From sequence record PP430345: a DNA stretch of 64,000 nt. One strand, 5' to 3'. A program made the position numbers and the translations under genes. Every line of letters starts with the position of its first letter. Position 1 is the first letter of the stretch. The notes beneath the pieces are model-generated. The model was not told the origin of the DNA. It saw only the letters and a program-made list of their open reading frames with translations, and searched no databases. This document shows positions 1-9,623 of this stretch, piece after piece. This DNA is from Escherichia phage vB_EcoM-LTH01.

Positions 1-224
1 GCTCGCCTAAAATTTACCGAAAAATATTTTTAAAATGTTGTTGCTTTCGAATCAAAAACGGTGCTATTATATATTCATGGTGATGAGGACGGTTTCACGA
101 GGCAATCACCACCCCTGCCCGCTATTTTGCAAATGAGAATAATTCTCACCCCCCTGAAAAATTTCTTATCAAAGACCTTGACAAGCCTTATATTTTTGTG
201 CATATAAAAAATTTTTCAATTTTG

Positions 225-700
225 AAATGAAACTGAAATTTGAAAAACCCCTCAAGTATCTGGCCTGTAGCTCAAGTTCTCAATTTAAAATGCAAACTCA
301 AAAATGAAAAACCTCTCAAGTTCCTAATCTCTGTATCGAAAAACCTCTCAAGTTCTCGTGCACAGCTTTCAGGTTACGATCTGAAAAATGAAAAACCCCT
401 CAAGTTCTCAAATTATTTTGGTCACTGGTGTTGTATGTTTGCTTTGTATCATAGGTATACTGGAACAGTAACGTATTGAATCTGGATGGTGAGTCTGTAA
501 GAGGGGCATCAACTAAGTTGATCTAGTGGTGCAGGTATGCAGGAATGACACAGTATGGATGGGGCACGGTGGCAGGAGTCTTAAATTTATCTCAAATAGA
601 ATTTCAAATTGAAATCTGAAAATCCCCCATGAAACAAATATCACAGGGAAATATCTCAAATAGATTTTGGATCTGAAATCTGAATTTGTTTCAGCGAGCA
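225..700. repeat. Repeat-rich non-coding region: four copies of GAAAAACC(C/T)CTCAAGT (241-260, 306-324, 338-357, 390-410) and two copies of ATCTCAAATAGA...ATCTGAA (589-624, 653-688); candidate origin, packaging or regulator-binding array
   Basis: Direct repeats read in the sequence; no convincing ORF; lies beyond the 3' end of the minus-strand block. Confidence 0.6.
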
Positions 701-704
701 AATA

Positions 705-1523
705 TCACTCGTTAAAGAGTGTGTACAGGTCGAACGAAACATCCCCATTCACAGCTTTGAATAGTTGGATCTCTTCTTCTGTTGGGGAAAGCCAGTCTTC
801 AAAGAAAGTTTTAAAGTCCTCCTCTTTAAATGACTTACCCATTTTACTATCCCCTGTTGCGAAACGGATATAGTTTACTAGTTTAAATTTCTGATCTCTT
901 TCTTTACCAAAGAGGATGCTCTCTTTTGTCCAGTTGTTATGGACCATCAAGGAACCATCACAAAAGATATTTAACGTAACTGAAGTATCTTTCTTACCTA
1001 CCCGATTGATGTAACGAGTAAGGGAATCTTTCTCATACTCCCAGACAAAAGCCAGACTACCGAATGCTTTTTTGGATTTAAGATAGGCTAAAGGAAACTG
1101 ATCTACACAGGTATGATCAGCCCTTACAAAACCAGGGTCCATGCTGTCAGTAGCGTCAGCTATTTGGCTGAGTAAGGTTATTGCCTTGTCATCATTTATC
1201 GGGTCTTTTGATGAAGGATCAAAAGCTTCATCAAGAATACGCGATACCTTAGTGCGGTACTCATGAAACTTCGTGATTAGCGCCTCTGACTTTTCAATAT
1301 ATTCTTGAACAGAATCATCAGTATCAAGTTCACGGATCAAGTCTTTCAATCCGTGCACAGCACTTTCAATCTCCTCATTCTCTAGATCTCTTAAAGTGTA
1401 CTCTGCATTCCTGATCATTGTTTTATGATCAAGTGGAGTAGGTGATTGCAAACCATGAGGATTGGTAATATTCATCGGGACAACTTCATAAATGATTAGT
1501 GGGTCAAATTTACGGTAGGCCAT
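705..1523 (-). CDS. hypothetical protein (272 aa)
   Basis: Long ORF in the minus-strand block; no recognisable motif. Confidence 0.65.
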   Translation of the reverse strand: MAYRKFDPLIIYEVVPMNITNPHGLQSPTPLDHKTMIRNAEYTLRDLENEEIESAVHGLKDLIRELDTDDSVQEYIEKSEALITKFHEYRTKVSRILDEAFDPSSKDPINDDKAITLLSQIADATDSMDPGFVRADHTCVDQFPLAYLKSKKAFGSLAFVWEYEKDSLTRYINRVGKKDTSVTLNIFCDGSLMVHNNWTKESILFGKERDQKFKLVNYIRFATGDSKMGKSFKEEDFKTFFEDWLSPTEEEIQLFKAVNGDVSFDLYTLFNE

Positions 1524-1628
1524 GTAAGCTCCTGTATGCGTTTGTGAAGACCTTTTATGCTTGGCAAGGTCATTTATCGTCTTGTGTTTGTTTATGCTTA
1601 CAGGGGCCTGTTTAGGCCCCTTCTTTTG

Positions 1629-1856
1629 TTACTGTCTAATCTCAATAAGGGAAAGCTCGTGTTTTGGAGTGGGGCTGTAGCCTTCCCCATCATCATTGCC
1701 CCAAAATTCGAGAACATTCTTTAAGTTCATCTCTCCCATATCCCCTTCGTACCATTCAAAACCATAAAACTCTTCTGTCTCTAAATTCTCGACAAACAGC
1801 ACAGTCTTTAATTTCAGGTCACGATAGAATCGAAAGTTCTTTGGAAGCTTGTACAT
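1629..1856 (-). CDS. hypothetical protein (75 aa)
   Basis: ORF abutting its neighbours in the same operon. Confidence 0.5.
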   Translation of the reverse strand: MYKLPKNFRFYRDLKLKTVLFVENLETEEFYGFEWYEGDMGEMNLKNVLEFWGNDDGEGYSPTPKHELSLIEIRQ

Positions 1857-2170
1857 TACATCACCTCCAGGTCATTGTCATCACAGTATTTAAGAATCCA
1901 GGCCAATGCCGCATTGAATTCTTGTTCGTGATCAGTGTCCGCAGTTAATGTAAAAACTAACCACATGTCTTTGTTCGTTTCTACCCGAACGTAGTCGGTA
2001 AAACCCTGCTTCATAATTTTACGTAGGAAGTCTTCTTCCGTCAAGGGGTAGTTTACAGAAGTATCAATACCCTCTTCGGTCATACGCTCAAGACTAATGT
2101 CTGCAACGATATTTTTACGTACACTGAAAGTCTTGTCAATAACTACTTGCGTTCTTTCATCGATAATCAT
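1856..2170 (-). CDS. hypothetical protein (104 aa)
   Basis: ORF whose stop overlaps the next start. Confidence 0.55.
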   Translation of the reverse strand: MIIDERTQVVIDKTFSVRKNIVADISLERMTEEGIDTSVNYPLTEEDFLRKIMKQGFTDYVRVETNKDMWLVFTLTADTDHEQEFNAALAWILKYCDDNDLEVM

Positions 2171-2173
2171 CTT

Positions 2174-2794
2174 TTATTCTCCTTTAACCAGTTTAGTAAG
2201 CTGTGCAATGAATTGATCCAGATTGTCCTCTGTGACTTCCGCATCCTTAACTCTGACTGTGCGCTTAATGTTCACTTCAAAAACATCCGTATCTACAACT
2301 TCCTGTTCTTTTTCTACAGGTGCAGGAGTGTAATTATCAAACTTAGCCAATGCTTTCTTTAAGCTATCTTCCTGCAAGGTGAAGTATTTTTCCAAATTAC
2401 TTTGCTTAAGCATAACATAATCGTCAGGATTATCGGAGTTATACAGTCGCCACATATTTGGATGACTTGTTTTGATCTTGTAGTCACCCCATTTATCCCC
2501 CAGCAGATACTGATCATCAATAGCCACTTCACCCCTTGGGATCGCTAGGTTAACGATGTATTCTGCCGACTCCGCTGACCATTGAGGGAAGAATGTGAAA
2601 TACTCTTCGATATCTCTGGATGTTAAGAACTGACCCTCAATACGTGGACCCACCGGACGTAAGTAAGAATCGTTATTCTCAGAAGGTCGAACAATGAATC
2701 GATCACCATGATTTTCAATCATACGTCGGTTAGATGGGTCCATTGAAATAAAATAACTTTTCTTACTTTCTTTCAGTTTTGCATATATAGCCAT
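2174..2794 (-). CDS. hypothetical protein (206 aa)
   Basis: ORF in operon context. Confidence 0.6.
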   Translation of the reverse strand: MAIYAKLKESKKSYFISMDPSNRRMIENHGDRFIVRPSENNDSYLRPVGPRIEGQFLTSRDIEEYFTFFPQWSAESAEYIVNLAIPRGEVAIDDQYLLGDKWGDYKIKTSHPNMWRLYNSDNPDDYVMLKQSNLEKYFTLQEDSLKKALAKFDNYTPAPVEKEQEVVDTDVFEVNIKRTVRVKDAEVTEDNLDQFIAQLTKLVKGE

Positions 2795-2864
2795 TTCTTT
2801 CTCCTCTTTGTTTTGATAACTGAAGTTTAGCTCAAGGGGTGACTCTCGTCAACCCCTTTTGTGA

Positions 2865-3386
2865 TTAATTTGGCTTTATAACTTTACGAACAACATCCAA
2901 AATCTCACTTTGATGCGTATATTCAGTATTGATTTTTGTGGGCCAGTCCAGATACCAAGGTTCTTCTAACTCCCTCAGGGGTTGAAGCGCAAAAGGAACC
3001 CCATGAAGGATGTGATCACGGTCAGGGGCAAACGTCTCCGTATAATCCCAAGCCCATCTCGCCTGCCCTTTAGTTATTGAATCGGCCCGGCGTTGCTTCA
3101 AGATCATCTTCTTAATGAAAACAGGATCTTCATCCTTATCTTCAATAAATTTAGGCGCTCGACCCATACATCCGATAAGGTAGTCATTATCTACACGTTG
3201 GATGAAGGACTCTACACTACCTCCCATTGCATTCCATTGGCCTACCCAAGACTTGCCACTTGAGGTGACTATAAGCTTACCTCTGCCATTCTCGTAGTTC
3301 TCAATGATAACCTCGATAGGGTCGAGCCTTTCTTCCTGGAGTTCTTCTATTCGAACCTTTTTAACTAAGCTTTCTGTGACTTTCAT
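2865..3386 (-). CDS. hypothetical protein (173 aa)
   Basis: ORF in operon context. Confidence 0.6.
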   Translation of the reverse strand: MKVTESLVKKVRIEELQEERLDPIEVIIENYENGRGKLIVTSSGKSWVGQWNAMGGSVESFIQRVDNDYLIGCMGRAPKFIEDKDEDPVFIKKMILKQRRADSITKGQARWAWDYTETFAPDRDHILHGVPFALQPLRELEEPWYLDWPTKINTEYTHQSEILDVVRKVIKPN

Positions 3387-3527
3387 TTCTTTTCCTTACG
3401 CTCTGGAAACTTCCACGCGAAGTACGCCATGTTTCGATTATGCTTCACACCATAATACACTTCATGACCGTATCCGAAAAGATATCCAGCAACAACTAGC
3501 GCGTATTCCCAAAACTTCCACTTGATT

Positions 3528-3935
3528 TTACGGATTGCATTTCCCATGTTTTCTCCCTATTAAGACTTTGTGACGTTTCTGAACGGCTCGCTCTAAAGGA
3601 TTAACCCATTTGGTATTAGTCTTCTTAAGCTTACGTGTAATGTTCCAGACAATGATCTTCTTACCAATATCAGTTCCACTCACCTTTAAAAGAACGGCTT
3701 GTTTGATAGCGCCCCCTCTTACCACAATGTTTGCAATAAGGAAAGACAACAAAGCTAAAGGACCCATCAGGATCACAACAATAAACATGAAGTAGTCCAT
3801 CCCACTTACTTTGCCAGTACCTGCCAAAAGGTCAATGTAAAACCAGATCACAAAAGGAATACACAGTAGATAGATACCGATAAATACCCAATCAACCACT
3901 GTCAGTGCAAACACCATACTCAAAAAAGCATCCAT
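3528..3935 (-). CDS. small membrane protein (135 aa, about three hydrophobic helices)
   Basis: ORF with hydrophobic segments (VFALTVVDWVFIGIYLLCIPFVIWF, FMFIVVILMGPLALLSFLIANIVV). Confidence 0.55.
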   Translation of the reverse strand: MDAFLSMVFALTVVDWVFIGIYLLCIPFVIWFYIDLLAGTGKVSGMDYFMFIVVILMGPLALLSFLIANIVVRGGAIKQAVLLKVSGTDIGKKIIVWNITRKLKKTNTKWVNPLERAVQKRHKVLIGRKHGKCNP

Positions 3936-3944
3936 AATAACCCC

Positions 3945-4046
3945 TTAATGACGACCATAGACATAGGTTTGTGCGACTGCACGTTTACCATCACCACCTG
4001 CATTATCATTTGCAGGAACTACAAACAACCACCATTTAATACCCAT
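3945..4046 (-). CDS. possible tiny ORF (33 aa)
   Basis: GAGGTG ribosome-binding site before ATG, stop immediately before the next gene's binding site; not in the supplied track. Confidence 0.25.
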   Translation of the reverse strand: MGIKWWLFVVPANDNAGGDGKRAVAQTYVYGRH

Positions 4047-4055
4047 ACTCACCTC

Positions 4056-4298
4056 TTAAACAGGATGTTGATCACAATAACCAAATACACCAAATCCATC
4101 AATTAGGATCAGATGGTTGTTCCAGTTGATACGCTCATCAACTCCCTTTTCCACAATACTGATCGAATCAACAGAGAAATTAAACGGCTTACCTAACTCT
4201 TTGTTGATATGATCTACAAGAGATTGTTTTGTACCTTCAATCTGTTTAACAGTTTTCAAACTTTCGATCAATGTACCACGATGTTGACGTACTCTCAT
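4056..4298 (-). CDS. hypothetical protein (80 aa)
   Basis: ORF preceded by GGAGG ribosome-binding site. Confidence 0.55.
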   Translation of the reverse strand: MRVRQHRGTLIESLKTVKQIEGTKQSLVDHINKELGKPFNFSVDSISIVEKGVDERINWNNHLILIDGFGVFGYCDQHPV

Positions 4299-4534
4299 TA
4301 CGACCTCCTCTTAATAAATTCCAAAACTATTGAGTAAAACTTTACCCACTGATCCAACAATCATGAAGATCAATCCCAATGTTAGACAGTATATGTAAAA
4401 CTTATCCAATTGACTTTCCTTCTCTTGTTAACTCTACATCTGTTTCATTGTGGTGTCAACACAATTTTGTGGTGACTTAAAAAATTAAGTACCGAACGAA
4501 TGTGAGTGTGGTTAATTTTTTAATAGATATATAA

Positions 4535-4580
4535 ACCCCGTCGAAGCAACCGAGCAGGTTGAGGGGTTTATCATCTAATA
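4535..4580 (-). terminator. possible stem-loop terminator downstream of the 4619-4990 gene
   Basis: AAACCCC ... GGGGTTT inverted repeat with a long loop and a T/A-rich flank; weak. Confidence 0.3.
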
Positions 4581-4618
4581 TAGTATTGTATGCCTAAATG
4601 GGCATAAAGGAAATGTTG

Positions 4619-4990
4619 TTACTTAGACCAACGTTTCAACGTATTCCTTACCATCGTGTGCATACTTTCCTCATCATGACCTGCTGACCACATTGCCGTA
4701 AGTAACGAGAGCAACCTTACAATATCTGGCTCCTCATCTAACAGACTACCAACCGTAGCGGACAGGAAATCAATATCTTCATCAGCAATACGATCAGGAT
4801 ACAGGAAAGTGTCTTCCTTTACAAGATCTATCGGCTTTCCTGATCCAATCTTATGGCGAGATAAAGTAAATCCTTTCCCGTTAAAGGTGGAGGCCCACCA
4901 TTTTACAGCCTCCGCACTTTCATTAATCATGTTGATAGTCATAACCACACCACGCCTACCAACTGATAACTTGTAAGTATACTCGCTCAA
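4619..4990 (-). CDS. hypothetical protein (123 aa)
   Basis: ORF in operon context. Confidence 0.6.
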   Translation of the reverse strand: MSEYTYKLSVGRRGVVMTINMINESAEAVKWWASTFNGKGFTLSRHKIGSGKPIDLVKEDTFLYPDRIADEDIDFLSATVGSLLDEEPDIVRLLSLLTAMWSAGHDEESMHTMVRNTLKRWSK

Positions 4991-5001
4991 AGATCCTCCC
5001 C

Positions 5002-6540
5002 TTATTTAAGATACTTGTCAAAATCAATTGCCTTGCCAAAAGGCGGGGTGAACGAAGACCCGCGACCTAGGATGATCCAAAGAACATTCTTACCATACTT
5101 TTTGGCCCAATCTTTCTTTTGAGATACATCAGCAAAGTAACCGTCAGTATAGATGATGATCTGATCCATAGGGTCTTTCATTTCATCTAATGCTTCAAAC
5201 ACACAAGAAACATCCGTACCAAATGTGGTCTTGATCTTATAGTTAGCAATCTCATTCACATTCTTCTTCGTATACGTTTCAATGTTACCAACCTTTGTTG
5301 ACCAGCAGGCCATCGTGACCTCAAACTCGTCGTAAAGATTACACAATCCACGAATCTCACGCATTGTTGGTCTTAACAGTTCATCGTTAAATGATCCCGA
5401 CACATCAAAGAAAACACCTGCACGGATAGTCTTCTGTTTATTCTTTGATGGTAAACCAATTGTTTGTCGTCCAGACAAGTAACCTGAGCTACGGAGAGTC
5501 CGAGTTAACGAGTGACTACGGCGTGACAAACGACGATATGATACATCATCTTTAAACAGGCGTTCAATAGTTTTACGCAACAAACGAAGATAGTTAATCT
5601 TTGGTTTACCTGCCGCTTCTACAAAACGTCGTGCATCTTCCGGCGCACCGCTTCCTGCTGCCTGTACGGCATTCTCAATAGCTCGACGCATAACCCCATC
5701 GTTGTACTGGCGTTCTTCTGCTGTTTGCTTGGGCTTCGCTTTACGGTCGATTCCCAGTGCATCTTCGATATCATCACCTTCTGAATCTTCTGGATCACCA
5801 TTCTGGTCCATGTGCTGATCAACACCTTTACGACCTTGACCACCTTCTTCACCATCACCCTCTCCACTTCCAGAACCAGAACCTTTCCCTTTGGATTTTT
5901 CTTTATCATCTTGCTCTTTATTCAGTATTTCATAGATCTGCTCAGTATACATATCTTTGAATCGGAAATCACAGTAAGACCAGGCCATAAATCCAAATTC
6001 AGCATTTTTATCAAATACCGTTCTCTCTCCGGCAGGGAACCAGGCTTTACCTAGCTCATCCCCTTTCTGGTGAATAAGCACAGCCGTTGTATTGATACGG
6101 TGATCCGCTGCAATGTTGTAAAGTTCATGATTAAATCCTTTACCACGAGAGGCGTGATCAGAGATCACATGATCACATTCATGCTCAAGAATAAGAGCAA
6201 GCTCACGAGCAGTCTTTCGACGATAGAAGACATTGATAAACTCAATACCCTCTTTCAGCTTTTTAGGATCTTTCTCAGATTTGGAAAGTCGATCAAGTAC
6301 CAATTTTTTACGTTCTTCTGTCATACCTGCAACGAACTCTGGATGGTAATACAGGTTACGTCCATCAGTCGCCATTGTACTACACCACTCCGTCGCCTTT
6401 TTAACAGGCATAGACGAAAGCATCACCCCGTAGAAGGGTTTAAAACGCATCAGTTGTAGACTAGCAGCCTCAATGATACGTTCTGCTTCAGAGACTTGCA
6501 TTTCAATCATGTTGCTTTCTTCAATCGTCAGTTTTGCCAT
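5002..6540 (-). CDS. metallopeptidase-like (HExxH) plus VWA-like domain protein, partner of the adjacent MoxR-like ATPase
   Basis: N-terminal HECDH (HExxH-type) motif, acidic Gly/Ser-rich linker, C-terminal VWA-like FFDVSGSF (DxSxS) motif; sits directly downstream of the AAA+ ATPase. Confidence 0.7.
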   Translation of the reverse strand: MAKLTIEESNMIEMQVSEAERIIEAASLQLMRFKPFYGVMLSSMPVKKATEWCSTMATDGRNLYYHPEFVAGMTEERKKLVLDRLSKSEKDPKKLKEGIEFINVFYRRKTARELALILEHECDHVISDHASRGKGFNHELYNIAADHRINTTAVLIHQKGDELGKAWFPAGERTVFDKNAEFGFMAWSYCDFRFKDMYTEQIYEILNKEQDDKEKSKGKGSGSGSGEGDGEEGGQGRKGVDQHMDQNGDPEDSEGDDIEDALGIDRKAKPKQTAEERQYNDGVMRRAIENAVQAAGSGAPEDARRFVEAAGKPKINYLRLLRKTIERLFKDDVSYRRLSRRSHSLTRTLRSSGYLSGRQTIGLPSKNKQKTIRAGVFFDVSGSFNDELLRPTMREIRGLCNLYDEFEVTMACWSTKVGNIETYTKKNVNEIANYKIKTTFGTDVSCVFEALDEMKDPMDQIIIYTDGYFADVSQKKDWAKKYGKNVLWIILGRGSSFTPPFGKAIDFDKYLK

Positions 6541-6552
6541 TTCATTTTCTCC

Positions 6553-6585
6553 AAATTAAAAAAGGACACCTCTTTCGAGATGCCC
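6553..6585 (-). terminator. stem-loop with GAAA loop followed by U6, between the MoxR and VWA genes; overlaps a TTGACA-N17-TAATAT promoter-like element (6588-6616, minus)
   Basis: Minus-strand reading GGGCATCTC-GAAA-GAGGTGTCC then TTTTTT. Confidence 0.4.
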
Positions 6586-6620
6586 TTATATTAAGTTAAC
6601 TGTTTTTCGTTGTCAAGAGA

Positions 6621-7850
6621 TTATTCGAATTCTTTAATCAGTTGACCATATCGAGTCATGTATTCCATAACTGCGGCAGAAACAGTCGGGCAACTCTTAC
6701 GCATCAGCGGAATCATTTTCTGACGTTTCGGGTTAACAGTTAGGATAGATGGCTTATCGTTTGGACCACGGAACACGCCCAAGATCAAAGCAATCATCGT
6801 ATCCTTGTTGTTTGCATAATAGTTATTGTACATGAACGTAAGGAAGTTACCTGCACGCTCAAGGAACTTATCATCCGTCATGTCATTATCCATAACCTCA
6901 TCTTCCATGCGACGAAGGCCAGTTTGTGCCAGTACGTAAACAAGGTCGTTCTTACTACGATCAAGTTTATGTTCTTTCACTGCCCCACTAAAGATATCTT
7001 CAATCGGTGGAAGTTCTTTAGCACGTAAATGATAAGCAAGGATCTGTACTTCCAGGCCTTCACCAACTGTACCTGCAAGAGCAACCTCTGCGATAAATTC
7101 ATTAATCTCACCTGCATCATACTTGTACAGAATGTCAGATGCTGTTTTCCATTGACGAGGAGATGAATAAACCGGAGTACTTCGGTTTTCTACGTCACCA
7201 GTATAGAAATGCTCTGGAAACTGCTTCAAGAAACCAATAATGTTCGGGTGCAGACGGAACGGAATCGCATAGTCTTCGATCCACACATCCAGATTATAAT
7301 CAACTTCTGCAATAATCATACGGTTAACCAATGGGCCAGGCATAGAAGTAGTCCCTGCTCCATCAGTATCACGGTTACCTGCACCTACAAACACAGTACC
7401 TTTCGGGAACTTATGCTCACCTGCAACGTGATCAAGAATAACCTGATATGCAGAGTGCTGAGTGCCCAATGGTGCATTTGGCAGTTCATCCAGGAACACG
7501 ATACCTTCCCAATCAGGATCAGTAGGCCAAAAGTTTGGAACTGCATATACGGTACGAGTGACTTCTTTACCAGTTTTCGGATCTGGATAAGAGATCGGAA
7601 TCGGAATACCTGCGATATCTTGTGGCTCTTTATCCGACAGACGAACATCACAAAGGTTATTGCCTACACGATGTGGGAACATGGAATCAGCGATCTGTTT
7701 TACTTTTTCAGACTTACCAAGACCAGCACCACCAAAAAAGAATACGGTCTTTCCGATGGAAGCCCCCAGGCGAATCAGTGGTTCCATATCACGGATACTG
7801 ATACGTTTTTTGAACATGGTTTGGTCCATACGTTGATAAGTTGCTTGCAT
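6621..7850 (-). CDS. MoxR-like AAA+ ATPase
   Basis: Walker A FFFGGAGLGKSEK, Walker B IVFLDELPNAP; adjacent to the VWA protein. Confidence 0.7.
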   Translation of the reverse strand: MQATYQRMDQTMFKKRISIRDMEPLIRLGASIGKTVFFFGGAGLGKSEKVKQIADSMFPHRVGNNLCDVRLSDKEPQDIAGIPIPISYPDPKTGKEVTRTVYAVPNFWPTDPDWEGIVFLDELPNAPLGTQHSAYQVILDHVAGEHKFPKGTVFVGAGNRDTDGAGTTSMPGPLVNRMIIAEVDYNLDVWIEDYAIPFRLHPNIIGFLKQFPEHFYTGDVENRSTPVYSSPRQWKTASDILYKYDAGEINEFIAEVALAGTVGEGLEVQILAYHLRAKELPPIEDIFSGAVKEHKLDRSKNDLVYVLAQTGLRRMEDEVMDNDMTDDKFLERAGNFLTFMYNNYYANNKDTMIALILGVFRGPNDKPSILTVNPKRQKMIPLMRKSCPTVSAAVMEYMTRYGQLIKEFE

Positions 7851-7920
7851 TTTATATCTCCTCTTGTTTTTGATGTGATAAGTATATCTTTTCTATTTCT
7901 TAAGTCAACAAGTTTTTAAA

Positions 7921-8454
7921 TTATTTTGAAAAATTTTTACTTCCCCAACGACCAGTAAACATAAAACCCGCATCTTCAAAAACACCATCAGGATTTTCTT
8001 TGAAGAGTTTAAGGTAGTGTTCTAGAACACCGTCCCACTGCTTTTTATCGAAGTATACAACAGATTCACCTGTCAATACAACACCTTCGTCATAACCATC
8101 TTCCTTTTTACCCATGACCATCACGGTATTCTTTTTACGTCGAATAACCACATTATCATGATAGCCTGCACAACCCCCATGACCACAGCTACAAGTAAGG
8201 AATGATGCAAAAGAAAAACCAAATTGCCGATCTCCCTTGTACGTTGGGTTCATAGCTTCAAGGAAAGAAAACATGGTGTAAACACCTTTCGGTTCAGATC
8301 CATTGATCTTACAACCGAGCTTTGTAATGTCACCTTTTGTTTCTTCAGGGAATTCTTTCCAACCATCAGCGTCTTGTACCCCATAATCACCGTAACGTTC
8401 CAAATCGTCAAAGTATGTTGTTGTGAACGGTTCAATACTCAATACCTTTTTCAT
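7921..8454 (-). CDS. hypothetical protein (177 aa), Cys/His-rich segment
   Basis: ORF; CSCGHGGCAGYH cluster. Confidence 0.6.
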   Translation of the reverse strand: MKKVLSIEPFTTTYFDDLERYGDYGVQDADGWKEFPEETKGDITKLGCKINGSEPKGVYTMFSFLEAMNPTYKGDRQFGFSFASFLTCSCGHGGCAGYHDNVVIRRKKNTVMVMGKKEDGYDEGVVLTGESVVYFDKKQWDGVLEHYLKLFKENPDGVFEDAGFMFTGRWGSKNFSK

Positions 8455-9014
8455 TTAAACTCCTTCCACTTTTTAATAAGTTTCTGAACAAATTCTTTAC
8501 GTTCGTCGAGATAGCTACAATAGGCAAAAGAATCACAATAATCGAGATACCTTCCGATACTTTCATACCAACCAACCATCTCCGTAATCAACAAGTGCAT
8601 TGTTACATACTTCCTGATCCGTTGCAAGTCTTTTTCTGTGGTGCTACAAGTTCGCAGAATATCTAAGTTGTGTTTAAGATCCGCAAGCTTAACATGACAA
8701 GCACCCTCACTCTCTAAAATCCCCTCTAGGTAATCAGATGAAGATTGCTTACGTTTCTTTGTCACTGCATCGACAATCACTAAGGTTCTTTCTGAAATCC
8801 CCTTTTTAAAGAGGTGTTCCATAGTGATTTCAGTATCTTCAATCACATCATGCAAAACTCCTGCTGCCATTAAATCTTCCCTTCCCTTTTGCTGCAATGT
8901 TTGCATCACCTGCAAAGGATGAAGAATATAGATATTCCCCCCTTTATCTACTTGGTCAACATGGGCAGAAGCAGCTACGGATATCGCAATGGCTAACTCT
9001 TTATCTTGACTCAT
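8451..9014 (-). CDS. HD-domain small alarmone hydrolase-like protein (RelA/SpoT-type (p)ppGpp hydrolase fold)
   Basis: HPLQV...AAGVLHDVIEDT and KLADLKHNL, matching the SpoT/Mesh1 hydrolase signature (HD...LHDxxEDT...KLADRLHN). Confidence 0.7.
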   Translation of the reverse strand: MSQDKELAIAISVAASAHVDQVDKGGNIYILHPLQVMQTLQQKGREDLMAAGVLHDVIEDTEITMEHLFKKGISERTLVIVDAVTKKRKQSSSDYLEGILESEGACHVKLADLKHNLDILRTCSTTEKDLQRIRKYVTMHLLITEMVGWYESIGRYLDYCDSFAYCSYLDERKEFVQKLIKKWKEFK

Positions 9015-9134: not shown

Positions 9135-9623
9135 ATGAAACATTTCAATACACGAACTTTACATATGCTCGAAGATCACGTCGATGAAAGAGCCTACGAA
9201 TTCTTTATGTCTGATTACCAGGGCAAAAAGACTTGGCATTCTCAAGCAGAGGGAGCCAAACCTACATTGACAGTAGATGCACGAAACTCTGGTGGTTCTA
9301 TTCTTTGTGGGTATTGCGGTAGAAAAGCATTACCTATACAAAATCATATTTTAAGAGTTGTGGGCCACTGCTGTGTTTGTAAAGATGCAATGGACCAATT
9401 AGAGATAGAAAATGAGGAAGAAAAAGTAAAAGAAGAAATGGAAAAACTTCTTGACAAGCTCCGTGAAGTTAAGCCAAAATTAAACAAAGAAATCCTTAAA
9501 TTAACGATGCAGGAAGTGATGAAAGAAGAGATTCGCCGCATCGAAAATGGTTTCTTTTCAACTAATGAAAATCGTTTCGGTATCCAAATAAATAATGGGG
9601 AAGATTATGTTGAAGAAGATTAA
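9135..9623 (+). CDS. Cys-rich (zinc-ribbon-like) plus coiled-coil protein; first gene of the plus block
   Basis: CGYCG ... CCVC motifs, Glu/Lys-rich coiled-coil C-terminus; GAGGGG ribosome-binding site. Confidence 0.6.
   Translation: MKHFNTRTLHMLEDHVDERAYEFFMSDYQGKKTWHSQAEGAKPTLTVDARNSGGSILCGYCGRKALPIQNHILRVVGHCCVCKDAMDQLEIENEEEKVKEEMEKLLDKLREVKPKLNKEILKLTMQEVMKEEIRRIENGFFSTNENRFGIQINNGEDYVEED

Follow-up and report, generated by a model that had tools for sequence, protein, structure and literature searches.

Phage N4 (Schitoviridae) carries two genes, gp24 and gp25, with the ATPase gene first, that are middle genes in N4 and fall within the 14-gene core of N4-like phages, where they are listed as 'unknown' and 'vWFA domain' (PMC4193335). 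A MoxR-vWA pair with an N-terminal metallopeptidase was described in group 2.2 jumbo phages by Iyer et al. in 2021, who proposed a role in virion assembly (PMC7824862), and transposon insertions in Bas54 (phage MaxBurger) have been mapped in the HIDEN-SEQ preprint (10.1101/2025.11.20.689424). On the host side, the MoxR-vWA ternary conflict systems also couple a MoxR ATPase to a vWA protein, sometimes with peptidase effectors (Kaur et al. 2020). Here we analyse positions 5002–7850 of a 64,000-nucleotide stretch of Escherichia phage vB_EcoM-LTH01 (record PP430345; the whole stretch is hereafter the window), where two adjacent genes encode a MoxR-class AAA+ ATPase and a DUF2201 protein, here called the partner. 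The two are a pair of the N4 gp24/gp25 type, an already known kind of module with an unsolved mechanism. We propose with moderate confidence that they form an accessory ATP-driven remodelling-protease module that is put to use in counter-defence.

The source is an E. coli myovirus-type phage with a genome of about 143 kb. Across 4.5 kb it is 94–97% identical to the Escherichia phages A7_1, UPEC06, A5-4, A73 and W70, which are filed under unclassified Vequintavirinae. The known module is also present in such near-identical GenBank phages, and the window adds no new kind of element. A preliminary description, made from the DNA letters alone, had reported two co-oriented genes at exactly these positions and had read them as a MoxR-like ATPase with a 512-amino-acid (aa) HExxH metallopeptidase-like/VWA partner. 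Both genes are there, on the minus strand and separated by 80 nucleotides (nt), as are all four of the motifs it named: GGAGLGKS, HECDH, the acidic Gly/Ser-rich linker and DVSGSF. The features of the pair are as follows.

6621–7850, minus strand: MoxR-class AAA+ ATPase, 409 aa, orthologue of N4 gp24 and bas54_0063 (open reading frame, alignment, profile, AlphaFold and Foldseek)
7710–7733, minus strand: codons of the Walker A motif GGAGLGKS, aa 40–47
7485–7490, minus strand: codons of Walker B D121–E122
5002–6540, minus strand: DUF2201 protein, 512 aa, with a predicted zincin-like domain, an acidic linker and a VWA/MIDAS domain; orthologue of N4 gp25 and bas54_0055
6169–6183, minus strand: codons of the HExxH motif HECDH, aa 120–124, followed by the invariant H129
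5731–5928, minus strand: acidic Gly/Ser-rich linker, about aa 205–270
5005–5457, minus strand: VWA domain, about aa 362–512, with metal-ion-dependent adhesion site (MIDAS) residues D379, S381, S383, T442 and D466

The ATPase belongs to the MoxR class

Both open reading frames are real rather than chance, because they match strong PHROG families (PHROG 1297 at 7.5e-101 for the ATPase and PHROG 1314 at 1.6e-106 for the partner) and dozens of homologues were found for each. The window ATPase itself fails the cut-off of the curated Pfam family AAA_5. It had no Pfam match even at E ≤ 10, and none in NCBIfam, in PADLOC or in a single-sequence search of the PDB; among its homologues in the protein database, none has a precomputed Pfam domain.

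Despite failing the curated model directly, the protein is a MoxR-class AAA+ ATPase, as judged from its invariant motifs, a profile match to midasin, its structural matches and relatives that do pass AAA_5. In an alignment of 24 sequences, the Walker A residues G40–S47, the Walker B residues D121/E122, and N159, R177 and P231/R232 were invariant. Motifs were also counted in 80 viral ATPases and 71 full-length viral partners; G..G.GK[ST] and hhhDE were each present in 80/80 of the ATPases. By their positions in the AAA+ fold, N159, R177 and R232 are probably the sensor 1 asparagine, the arginine finger and the sensor 2 arginine. Against the PDB, the family profile matched midasin AAA domains at 3e-13. 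The AlphaFold (AF2) model reached a predicted local distance difference test (pLDDT) value of 87.9 and a predicted TM-score (pTM) of 0.80, and the top 15 Foldseek matches to it were nearly all NorQ or NorQD chains, plus CbbQ2 (E values of 1e-7 to 2e-6, target-normalised TM-scores of 0.56–0.66). In the model, predicted strands at residues 82–89 and 96–103 follow a helix at 76–80, which would fit the helix-2 insert of this AAA+ clade; where a pre-sensor 1 hairpin would be expected, only short predicted strand marks, at about 141–147, precede the strand at 151–158. Relatives from Thiobacillus (42.4 bits), Ca. Porisulfidus (35.3 bits) and cyanophage S-TIM61 (24.9 bits) passed AAA_5 at its cut-off of 22, and these same relatives match the window ATPase family profile at about 1e-60 to 1e-85.

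The best structural matches of the window ATPase are thus NorQ and CbbQ2, members of the CbbQ/GvpN/NorQ subfamily of MoxR ATPases, and its best sequence-profile match is midasin (Rea1/MDN1). Sequence identity to this group is just 14–18%. In contrast to the NorQ/CbbQ proteins, the phage ATPase extends at its C terminus by a further helical region of about 110–130 aa, and the alignments span about 270–300 of its 409 residues. One homologue, in Salmonella phage SSBI34, carries the name 'ribosomal protein uS19'.

The partner combines a putative peptidase domain with a VWA domain

Profile searches with AAA_5/MoxR and with VWA and metallopeptidase families, as the preliminary description had recommended, bore out both of its domain assignments. 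The ATPase is reached through its family profile, its structural model and its relatives, whereas the partner passes directly. It scored 90.4 bits against PF13203 DUF2201_N ('putative metallopeptidase domain'; cut-off 23.2) and 32.9 bits against PF09967 DUF2201 ('VWA-like domain'; cut-off 26.4), and the two domains follow one another in the expected N-to-C order.

The C-terminal domain carries the DVSGSF motif at aa 379–384 and a complete MIDAS in which D379, S381, S383, T442 and D466 are invariant, with DxSxS in 71/71 viral partners. Its family profile matched the integrin alpha-X I domain at 8.9e-5. The fold is that of a VWA (Rossmann-like) domain and resembles the NorD VWA and Rea1 MIDAS domains. 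The fold searches with the partner were dominated by this domain.

In the N-terminal domain, H120, E121, H124, H129 and E200 are invariant in homologues down to 24% identity, and HExxHxxxxH occurs in 71/71 viral partners. E200, 76 residues past HExxH, is a candidate third metal ligand. Through the HExxH region, the partner profile gave weak matches to the M48 peptidase 3c37 (2.5e-3), MJ1213 (0.011) and BepA (0.049). On this sequence evidence, we regard the domain as an M48-like zincin and a putative peptidase.

Between the two domains, the acidic linker differs among homologues in length and sequence. The AlphaFold model of the partner had a pLDDT of 79, with aa 219–236 predicted to be disordered (pLDDT <50). 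Single-sequence matches of the partner in the PDB were spurious, since only the Gly/Ser linker was aligned. Directly before the VWA domain lies a further segment, at aa 333–360 (window 5461–5544), that is conserved, strongly basic and rich in Arg and Ser (it begins YRRLSRRSHSLTRTLRSSG) and that was modelled with low confidence. Speculatively, it might serve as a grip point for the ATPase pore or as a cleavage site.

The label 'HNH endonuclease' has been attached to the partner family in PHROG 1314 and in many GenBank and RefSeq records, including N4 gp25, CR9 gp127, GAP32, PA5oct and others, and two of the loci that we collected (L003, 4165–5307, and L013, 4486–6039) are among the records with a DUF2201 protein misnamed in this way. 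The label is wrong: there is no HNH domain, the sole Pfam matches of the window partner are DUF2201_N and DUF2201, and N4 gp25 gave just these two domains. Proteins of the family also go by the names 'anti-sigma factor', 'protease' and 'gp25-like protein'; in the BASEL vequintaviruses, the two proteins are annotated 'MoxR ATPase' and 'putative metallopeptidase'.

Bas54 orthologues link the ATPase to escape from a defence system

Full-length orthologues of both proteins are encoded by Bas54: bas54_0063 for the ATPase (37% identity, E 8e-99) and bas54_0055 for the partner (37% identity, E 1e-104). Both genes were classed as non-essential on E. coli K-12, with insertions at 60/64 and 81/86 TA sites, respectively, about 94% of them (10.1101/2025.11.20.689424). 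When K-12 was compared with the clinical isolate CFE311, the log2 fold change was −7.23 for the ATPase gene bas54_0063 (adjusted p 0), −2.20 for the partner gene bas54_0055 (about 4.6-fold depleted, adjusted p 0.009) and −5.48 for bas54_0140 (10.1101/2025.11.20.689424). Knockouts of bas54_0063 and bas54_0140 were reported to be unable to overcome the cloned two-gene system DS-28 (10.1101/2025.11.20.689424).

Because the Bas54 ATPase orthologue is required to overcome DS-28, a counter-defence role of the pair is supported by orthology, strongly so for the ATPase only. The preliminary description had suggested that the pair and a nearby alarmone hydrolase form a host-takeover or counter-defence island. 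Its observation of the two genes is confirmed and its interpretation supported as far as counter-defence goes, with experimental evidence that comes from an orthologue; the link to the hydrolase holds in Vequintavirinae-like genomes only (see below). It had also called the role of such pairs in a phage not established; that role is not wholly unexplored, the pair having been recorded among the N4 core genes and, in 2021, in jumbo phages.

Several findings weigh against reading the pair as a counter-defence module. The functional data come from proteins just 37% identical to those of the window and from a preprint, and DS-28 is uncharacterised. On CFE311, bas54_0055 was far less depleted than the ATPase gene (about 4.6-fold versus complete loss), so the ATPase may act largely without the partner. 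bas54_0140, also required against DS-28, has no homologue in the window. The place of the pair in the N4-like core and its occurrence in ordinary bacterial chromosomal contexts suggest a cellular activity more general than the inhibition of one defence system. PADLOC has no model matching the pair, and in the literature that we found no family member has a demonstrated client, complex or proteolytic activity. Two other transposon studies of phage essentiality do not mention the pair genes, and the 'gp25' of CRISPRi-ART belongs to an unrelated phage.

Two further points concern the published table. The Bas54 DNA helicase gene bas54_0068 was also strongly depleted on CFE311 (log2 fold change −6.32; 10.1101/2025.11.20.689424). 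In Extended Data Table 8, sheet 'Data S6' is headed 'resampling_K-12_vs_CFE303', whereas its command line and file names give K-12 BW25113 versus CFE311.

The two genes travel together in phages and bacteria

We used profiles of both proteins to search 80 IMG/VR loci with ATPase relatives. Both the ATPase and the DUF2201 partner were encoded in 74 of the 80; in the other six, the contig ended 1067 nt or less downstream of the ATPase gene, so the partner was found in every viral locus with sufficient sequence downstream. It lay downstream and on the same strand in 72/74 paired loci, with a median gap of 73 nt and a gap of 150 nt or less in 56/72. The two exceptions are Vequintavirinae-type loci, one of them rV5-like, with the genes on divergent arms. 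A scan of bacterial genomes also found 74 of 80 loci paired. The pairing is close to obligate.

Phage records with homologues number 344 for the partner and 841 for the ATPase and span Vequintavirinae, Certrevirus, Rak2-like jumbo phages, PA5oct, N4-like phages and a cyanophage. The distant metagenomic partners P0129 and P0143 lie in phage-like rather than bacterial contigs. Bacterial pairs occur in many phyla, and the neighbours in Thiobacillus and Ca. Porisulfidus are housekeeping genes and not a prophage. Since pairing in bacteria is similar to that in viruses and has housekeeping rather than prophage surroundings, the module is ancient and cellular as well as viral. The Thiobacillus and Ca. 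Porisulfidus operons have the same two genes in the same order as the window (Thiobacillus ATPase, 34% identity to the window ATPase, E 7e-37). Unlike the phage pairs, bacterial operons have these housekeeping neighbours and, in 22/80 loci, a conserved third gene directly after the AAA_5/DUF2201 pair; HExxH is missing from 9/67 bacterial partners.

This third gene encodes about 370 aa with no Pfam match, and the organisms that carry it are annotated for the most part as Gamma- and Betaproteobacteria, either sulfur-oxidising or unclassified. Two copies that we compared were 44% identical (L142, 9401–10540; L122, 9110–10201). The viral loci and the window lack it; its product could be a client of the cellular module or a third subunit in it. 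In cyanophage S-TIM61 (L177, 3452–6087), the genes for Hsp20, the MoxR-like ATPase and the DUF2201 protein stand in a row, with an overlap of 4 nt between the last two, an arrangement that links the pair to another chaperone gene.

Among described phage pairs, N4 gp24 is 29% identical to the window ATPase (E 1e-25), and gp25 is collinear with the window partner (E 2e-7), with which it shares its Pfam architecture (DUF2201_N at 3e-87 and DUF2201 at 1e-46). The N4 proteins are shorter, at 352 versus 409 aa and 380 versus 512 aa; the window partner, unlike gp25, has an insert of about 40 aa in the peptidase domain and a long acidic linker. The pair found in jumbo phages of group 2.2 is identical to the window pair in domain architecture. 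K64-1 and PA5oct have homologous pairs, and GAP32 and jumbo phages related to it have homologues of the partner. Gene order differs in rV5-like genomes, where the pair is split between two divergent transcription units (about 3.6 kb apart in Bas54), whereas the pair of Certrevirus CR9 is adjacent and co-oriented, as in the window. In Vequintavirus loci (L004, L005 and L009) and Mydovirus KB57 (L016), the ATPase gene sits on the divergent arm 3.6–4 kb away. There, the peptidase-VWA gene adjoins, or is two small genes from, an 'anti-sigma factor' gene, and in Vequintavirus the genes that follow on the ATPase arm encode a cell-wall hydrolase, rIIA, rIIB and a helicase.

The preliminary description had further noted that MoxR-VWA pairs occur in predicted conflict systems. 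The same MoxR-vWA coupling is present here, but the systems of Kaur et al. 2020 are found on the host side, in multicellular prokaryotes, and are defined by arrays of effectors together with a third component (VMAP and others). Pfam and PHROG detected no third component of the VMAP, beta-propeller or FtsH type in the neighbouring genes, and PADLOC gave no hit, which sets the pair apart from these systems.

A model for the pair and its alternatives

If the pair is a remodelling-protease module, the first gene would supply a hexameric MoxR-class AAA+ motor and the second a dedicated adaptor, in which a flexible acidic linker would join a MIDAS-containing VWA domain to an M48-like zinc peptidase domain. 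The VWA domain may dock on the ATPase ring, as NorQ/NorD suggests by analogy, and the MIDAS metal may grip an acidic residue of the client protein, as in midasin. ATP hydrolysis would then apply force through the linker, pulling or twisting the adaptor; in NorQD, cryo-EM has shown a VWA extension entering the ATPase pore and the motor twisting and stretching the linker of its partner. The zincin domain could subsequently cut the client or the adaptor itself. A motor, a MIDAS adaptor and a remodelled linker would be the logic common to NorQ/NorD-type systems and the window pair. In this phage, the pair would have a non-structural, probably early-expressed accessory function, and its most likely use would be to dismantle or inactivate a host complex that blocks infection, as reported for the Bas54 ATPase against DS-28. 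Complex formation, the client, proteolysis and the transfer of the anti-defence role to this phage are steps that we infer.

A bolder version of this model, which we find possible though doubtful, is that phages of many lineages borrowed the bacterial AAA_5/DUF2201 module as an ATP-powered, MIDAS-targeted protease that grips a host immune complex such as DS-28 by an exposed acidic residue, pulls it apart and cuts it. If true, this would amount to a class of anti-defence that works enzymatically and at the cost of energy, whereas the usual inhibitor proteins act stoichiometrically. Few non-structural gene pairs of large virulent phages that still lack a mechanism are as widely conserved as this one. 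If the link between the ATPase and defence escape holds, it would point to ATP-consuming remodelling or proteolytic counter-defence and would give the N4 core genes gp24 and gp25 their first function. The window version of the pair is conveniently adjacent and co-oriented, and E. coli K-12 MG1655 supports growth of phages that carry it (A73, W70 and A7_1).

Protection might instead be indirect, through protein quality control: as a general proteostasis device and not a direct inhibitor, the pair would act on a phage protein, or on a stalled host–phage complex, by folding, disassembling or degrading it, where it would otherwise accumulate and trigger, or be targeted by, host immunity. The characterised MoxR systems are maturation or remodelling chaperones for specific complexes (RavA/ViaA, NorQ/NorD and CbbQ of the CbbQO-type Rubisco activase), N4-like core status and a spread over many bacterial phyla fit a generic activity, Hsp20 adjoins the pair in S-TIM61, and the Bas54 phenotype is conditional rather than absolute. 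However, a client is not known, no candidate client gene is conserved beside the pair in the viral loci examined, and the peptidase motif is conserved so strictly that degradation of a target is a better fit than help with folding. We consider this explanation unlikely, if still to be reckoned with.

A virion-assembly chaperone and maturation protease, helping to assemble or process structural proteins, is improbable. Iyer et al. proposed such a role for the same architecture by analogy with the MoxR-vWA of Acidianus two-tailed virus, which is reported to be required for tail assembly (PMC7824862). The S-TIM61 pair, besides adjoining Hsp20, is near a virion structural gene, and the record of the PA5oct ATPase homologue gp149 (L015, 478–1593) carries the note 'ESI-MS/MS'. 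That note is also found on PA5oct 'structural protein' genes; going by the record alone, the ATPase may have been detected in particle preparations. Against this stand the Bas54 data: since the orthologues tolerate insertions on K-12, infective virions form without them, which makes the role unlikely and counts against the proposal for vequintavirus orthologues. Nor do the genes appear as the conserved virion-assembly components that the preliminary description had allowed for. In the window, the pair sits outside the structural module. The pair is one part of a leftward arm of small genes at positions 1–9014; a rightward replication arm at 9135–38034, from which the first arm diverges, encodes a DNA polymerase, a primase-helicase and a Dda-like helicase; and 38083–64000 hold the tail fibres and the tape measure protein. 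The tail genes thus begin about 30 kb from the pair, which lies in an early-type arm. N4 gp24 and gp25 are likewise non-structural, middle rather than late genes, and bacteria carry the same pair outside prophages.

Insertion of a metal cofactor into a phage or host metalloenzyme, or activation of such an enzyme, in the manner of NorQ/NorD, CbbQ/CbbO or CobS/CobT, is quite improbable. It would agree with NorQ and CbbQ2 being the nearest solved structures and with the acidic linker and C-terminal VWA domain, as in NorD, whose linker is essential for metal insertion. The described NorD architecture, however, does not include the invariant HExxH domain; in the window partner, a predicted zincin-like domain takes the place of the N-terminal regions of NorD or CbbO, and there is no known metalloenzyme client. 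To our knowledge, an HExxH peptidase-like domain is not part of CobT or CbbO either. In addition, no client enzyme gene is conserved beside the pair in phage loci, and both Bas54 genes are dispensable on K-12.

Neighbouring genes and putative promoters

The surroundings of the pair in the window comprise three further genes and two putative promoter regions.

8451–9014, minus strand: SpoT-type HD-domain-only protein, 187 aa, resembling a small alarmone hydrolase (Pfam HD_4, TIGR00691)
7921–8454, minus strand: 177-aa protein between the HD gene and the ATPase gene (PHROG 8242 at 4.7e-58)
7881–7908, minus strand: sigma-70-like promoter upstream of the ATPase gene, TTGACT-16-TATACT (consensus match only)
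6562–6616, minus strand: intergenic cassette of a sigma-70-like promoter, TTGACA-17-TAATAT (6588–6616), followed by a hairpin with an 11-bp stem and a T-run (6562–6587) (consensus match only)
4619–4990, minus strand: 123-aa protein directly downstream of the partner gene (PHROG 12385 at 1.3e-27)

The HD protein matched Pfam HD_4 at 32.4 bits (cut-off 27.2) and the N-terminal hydrolase region of TIGR00691 at 2.8e-15. It has no synthetase domain and, by its domain content, resembles a small alarmone hydrolase; that content does not support the annotation 'GTP pyrophosphokinase' in UPEC06. That the pair and this hydrolase act in one alarmone-linked takeover pathway, for example in sensing or clearing (p)ppGpp-type signals, is very improbable: the HD gene does lie about 0.6 kb upstream on the same strand, and its linkage to the ATPase gene recurs in Certrevirus CR9, Mydovirus KB57 and two IMG/VR loci, but an HD homologue is nearby in just 2/80 viral loci and in none of the regions examined of N4, K64-1, PA5oct and S-TIM61, and each gene has its own promoter-like site. 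We accordingly rejected a general link between hydrolase and pair. Because the linkage is confined to those genomes, the HD gene is a lineage-specific neighbour in Vequintavirinae-like genomes, and the island is a feature of the lineage and not a functional unit.

The 177-aa gene overlaps the HD gene by 4 nt, and its product had no match in Pfam, NCBIfam or PADLOC. A homologue of the 123-aa protein is also found downstream of the pair in one viral locus (L017, 4.6e-25); Certrevirus CR9 gp128 is a similar-sized gene in the same position after the pair, the likeness being one of size and position alone.

One sigma-70-like promoter precedes each gene of the pair, and the hairpin with its T-run lies between the genes. 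Strong sigma-70-like promoters on coding strands are enriched in the two divergent non-structural arms, where they number 5 and 17, versus 5 in the 26-kb late arm. This pattern of putative promoters fits early or middle expression by host RNA polymerase.

In A7_1 and A5-4, both with about 97% identity to the window, the ATPase and partner genes are separated by an HNH homing endonuclease gene of 495 bp (L002, 4939–5433), and a homing endonuclease likewise stands between the two homologues in PA5oct. The gap between the two genes (window 6541–6620) looks like a recurrent insertion site.

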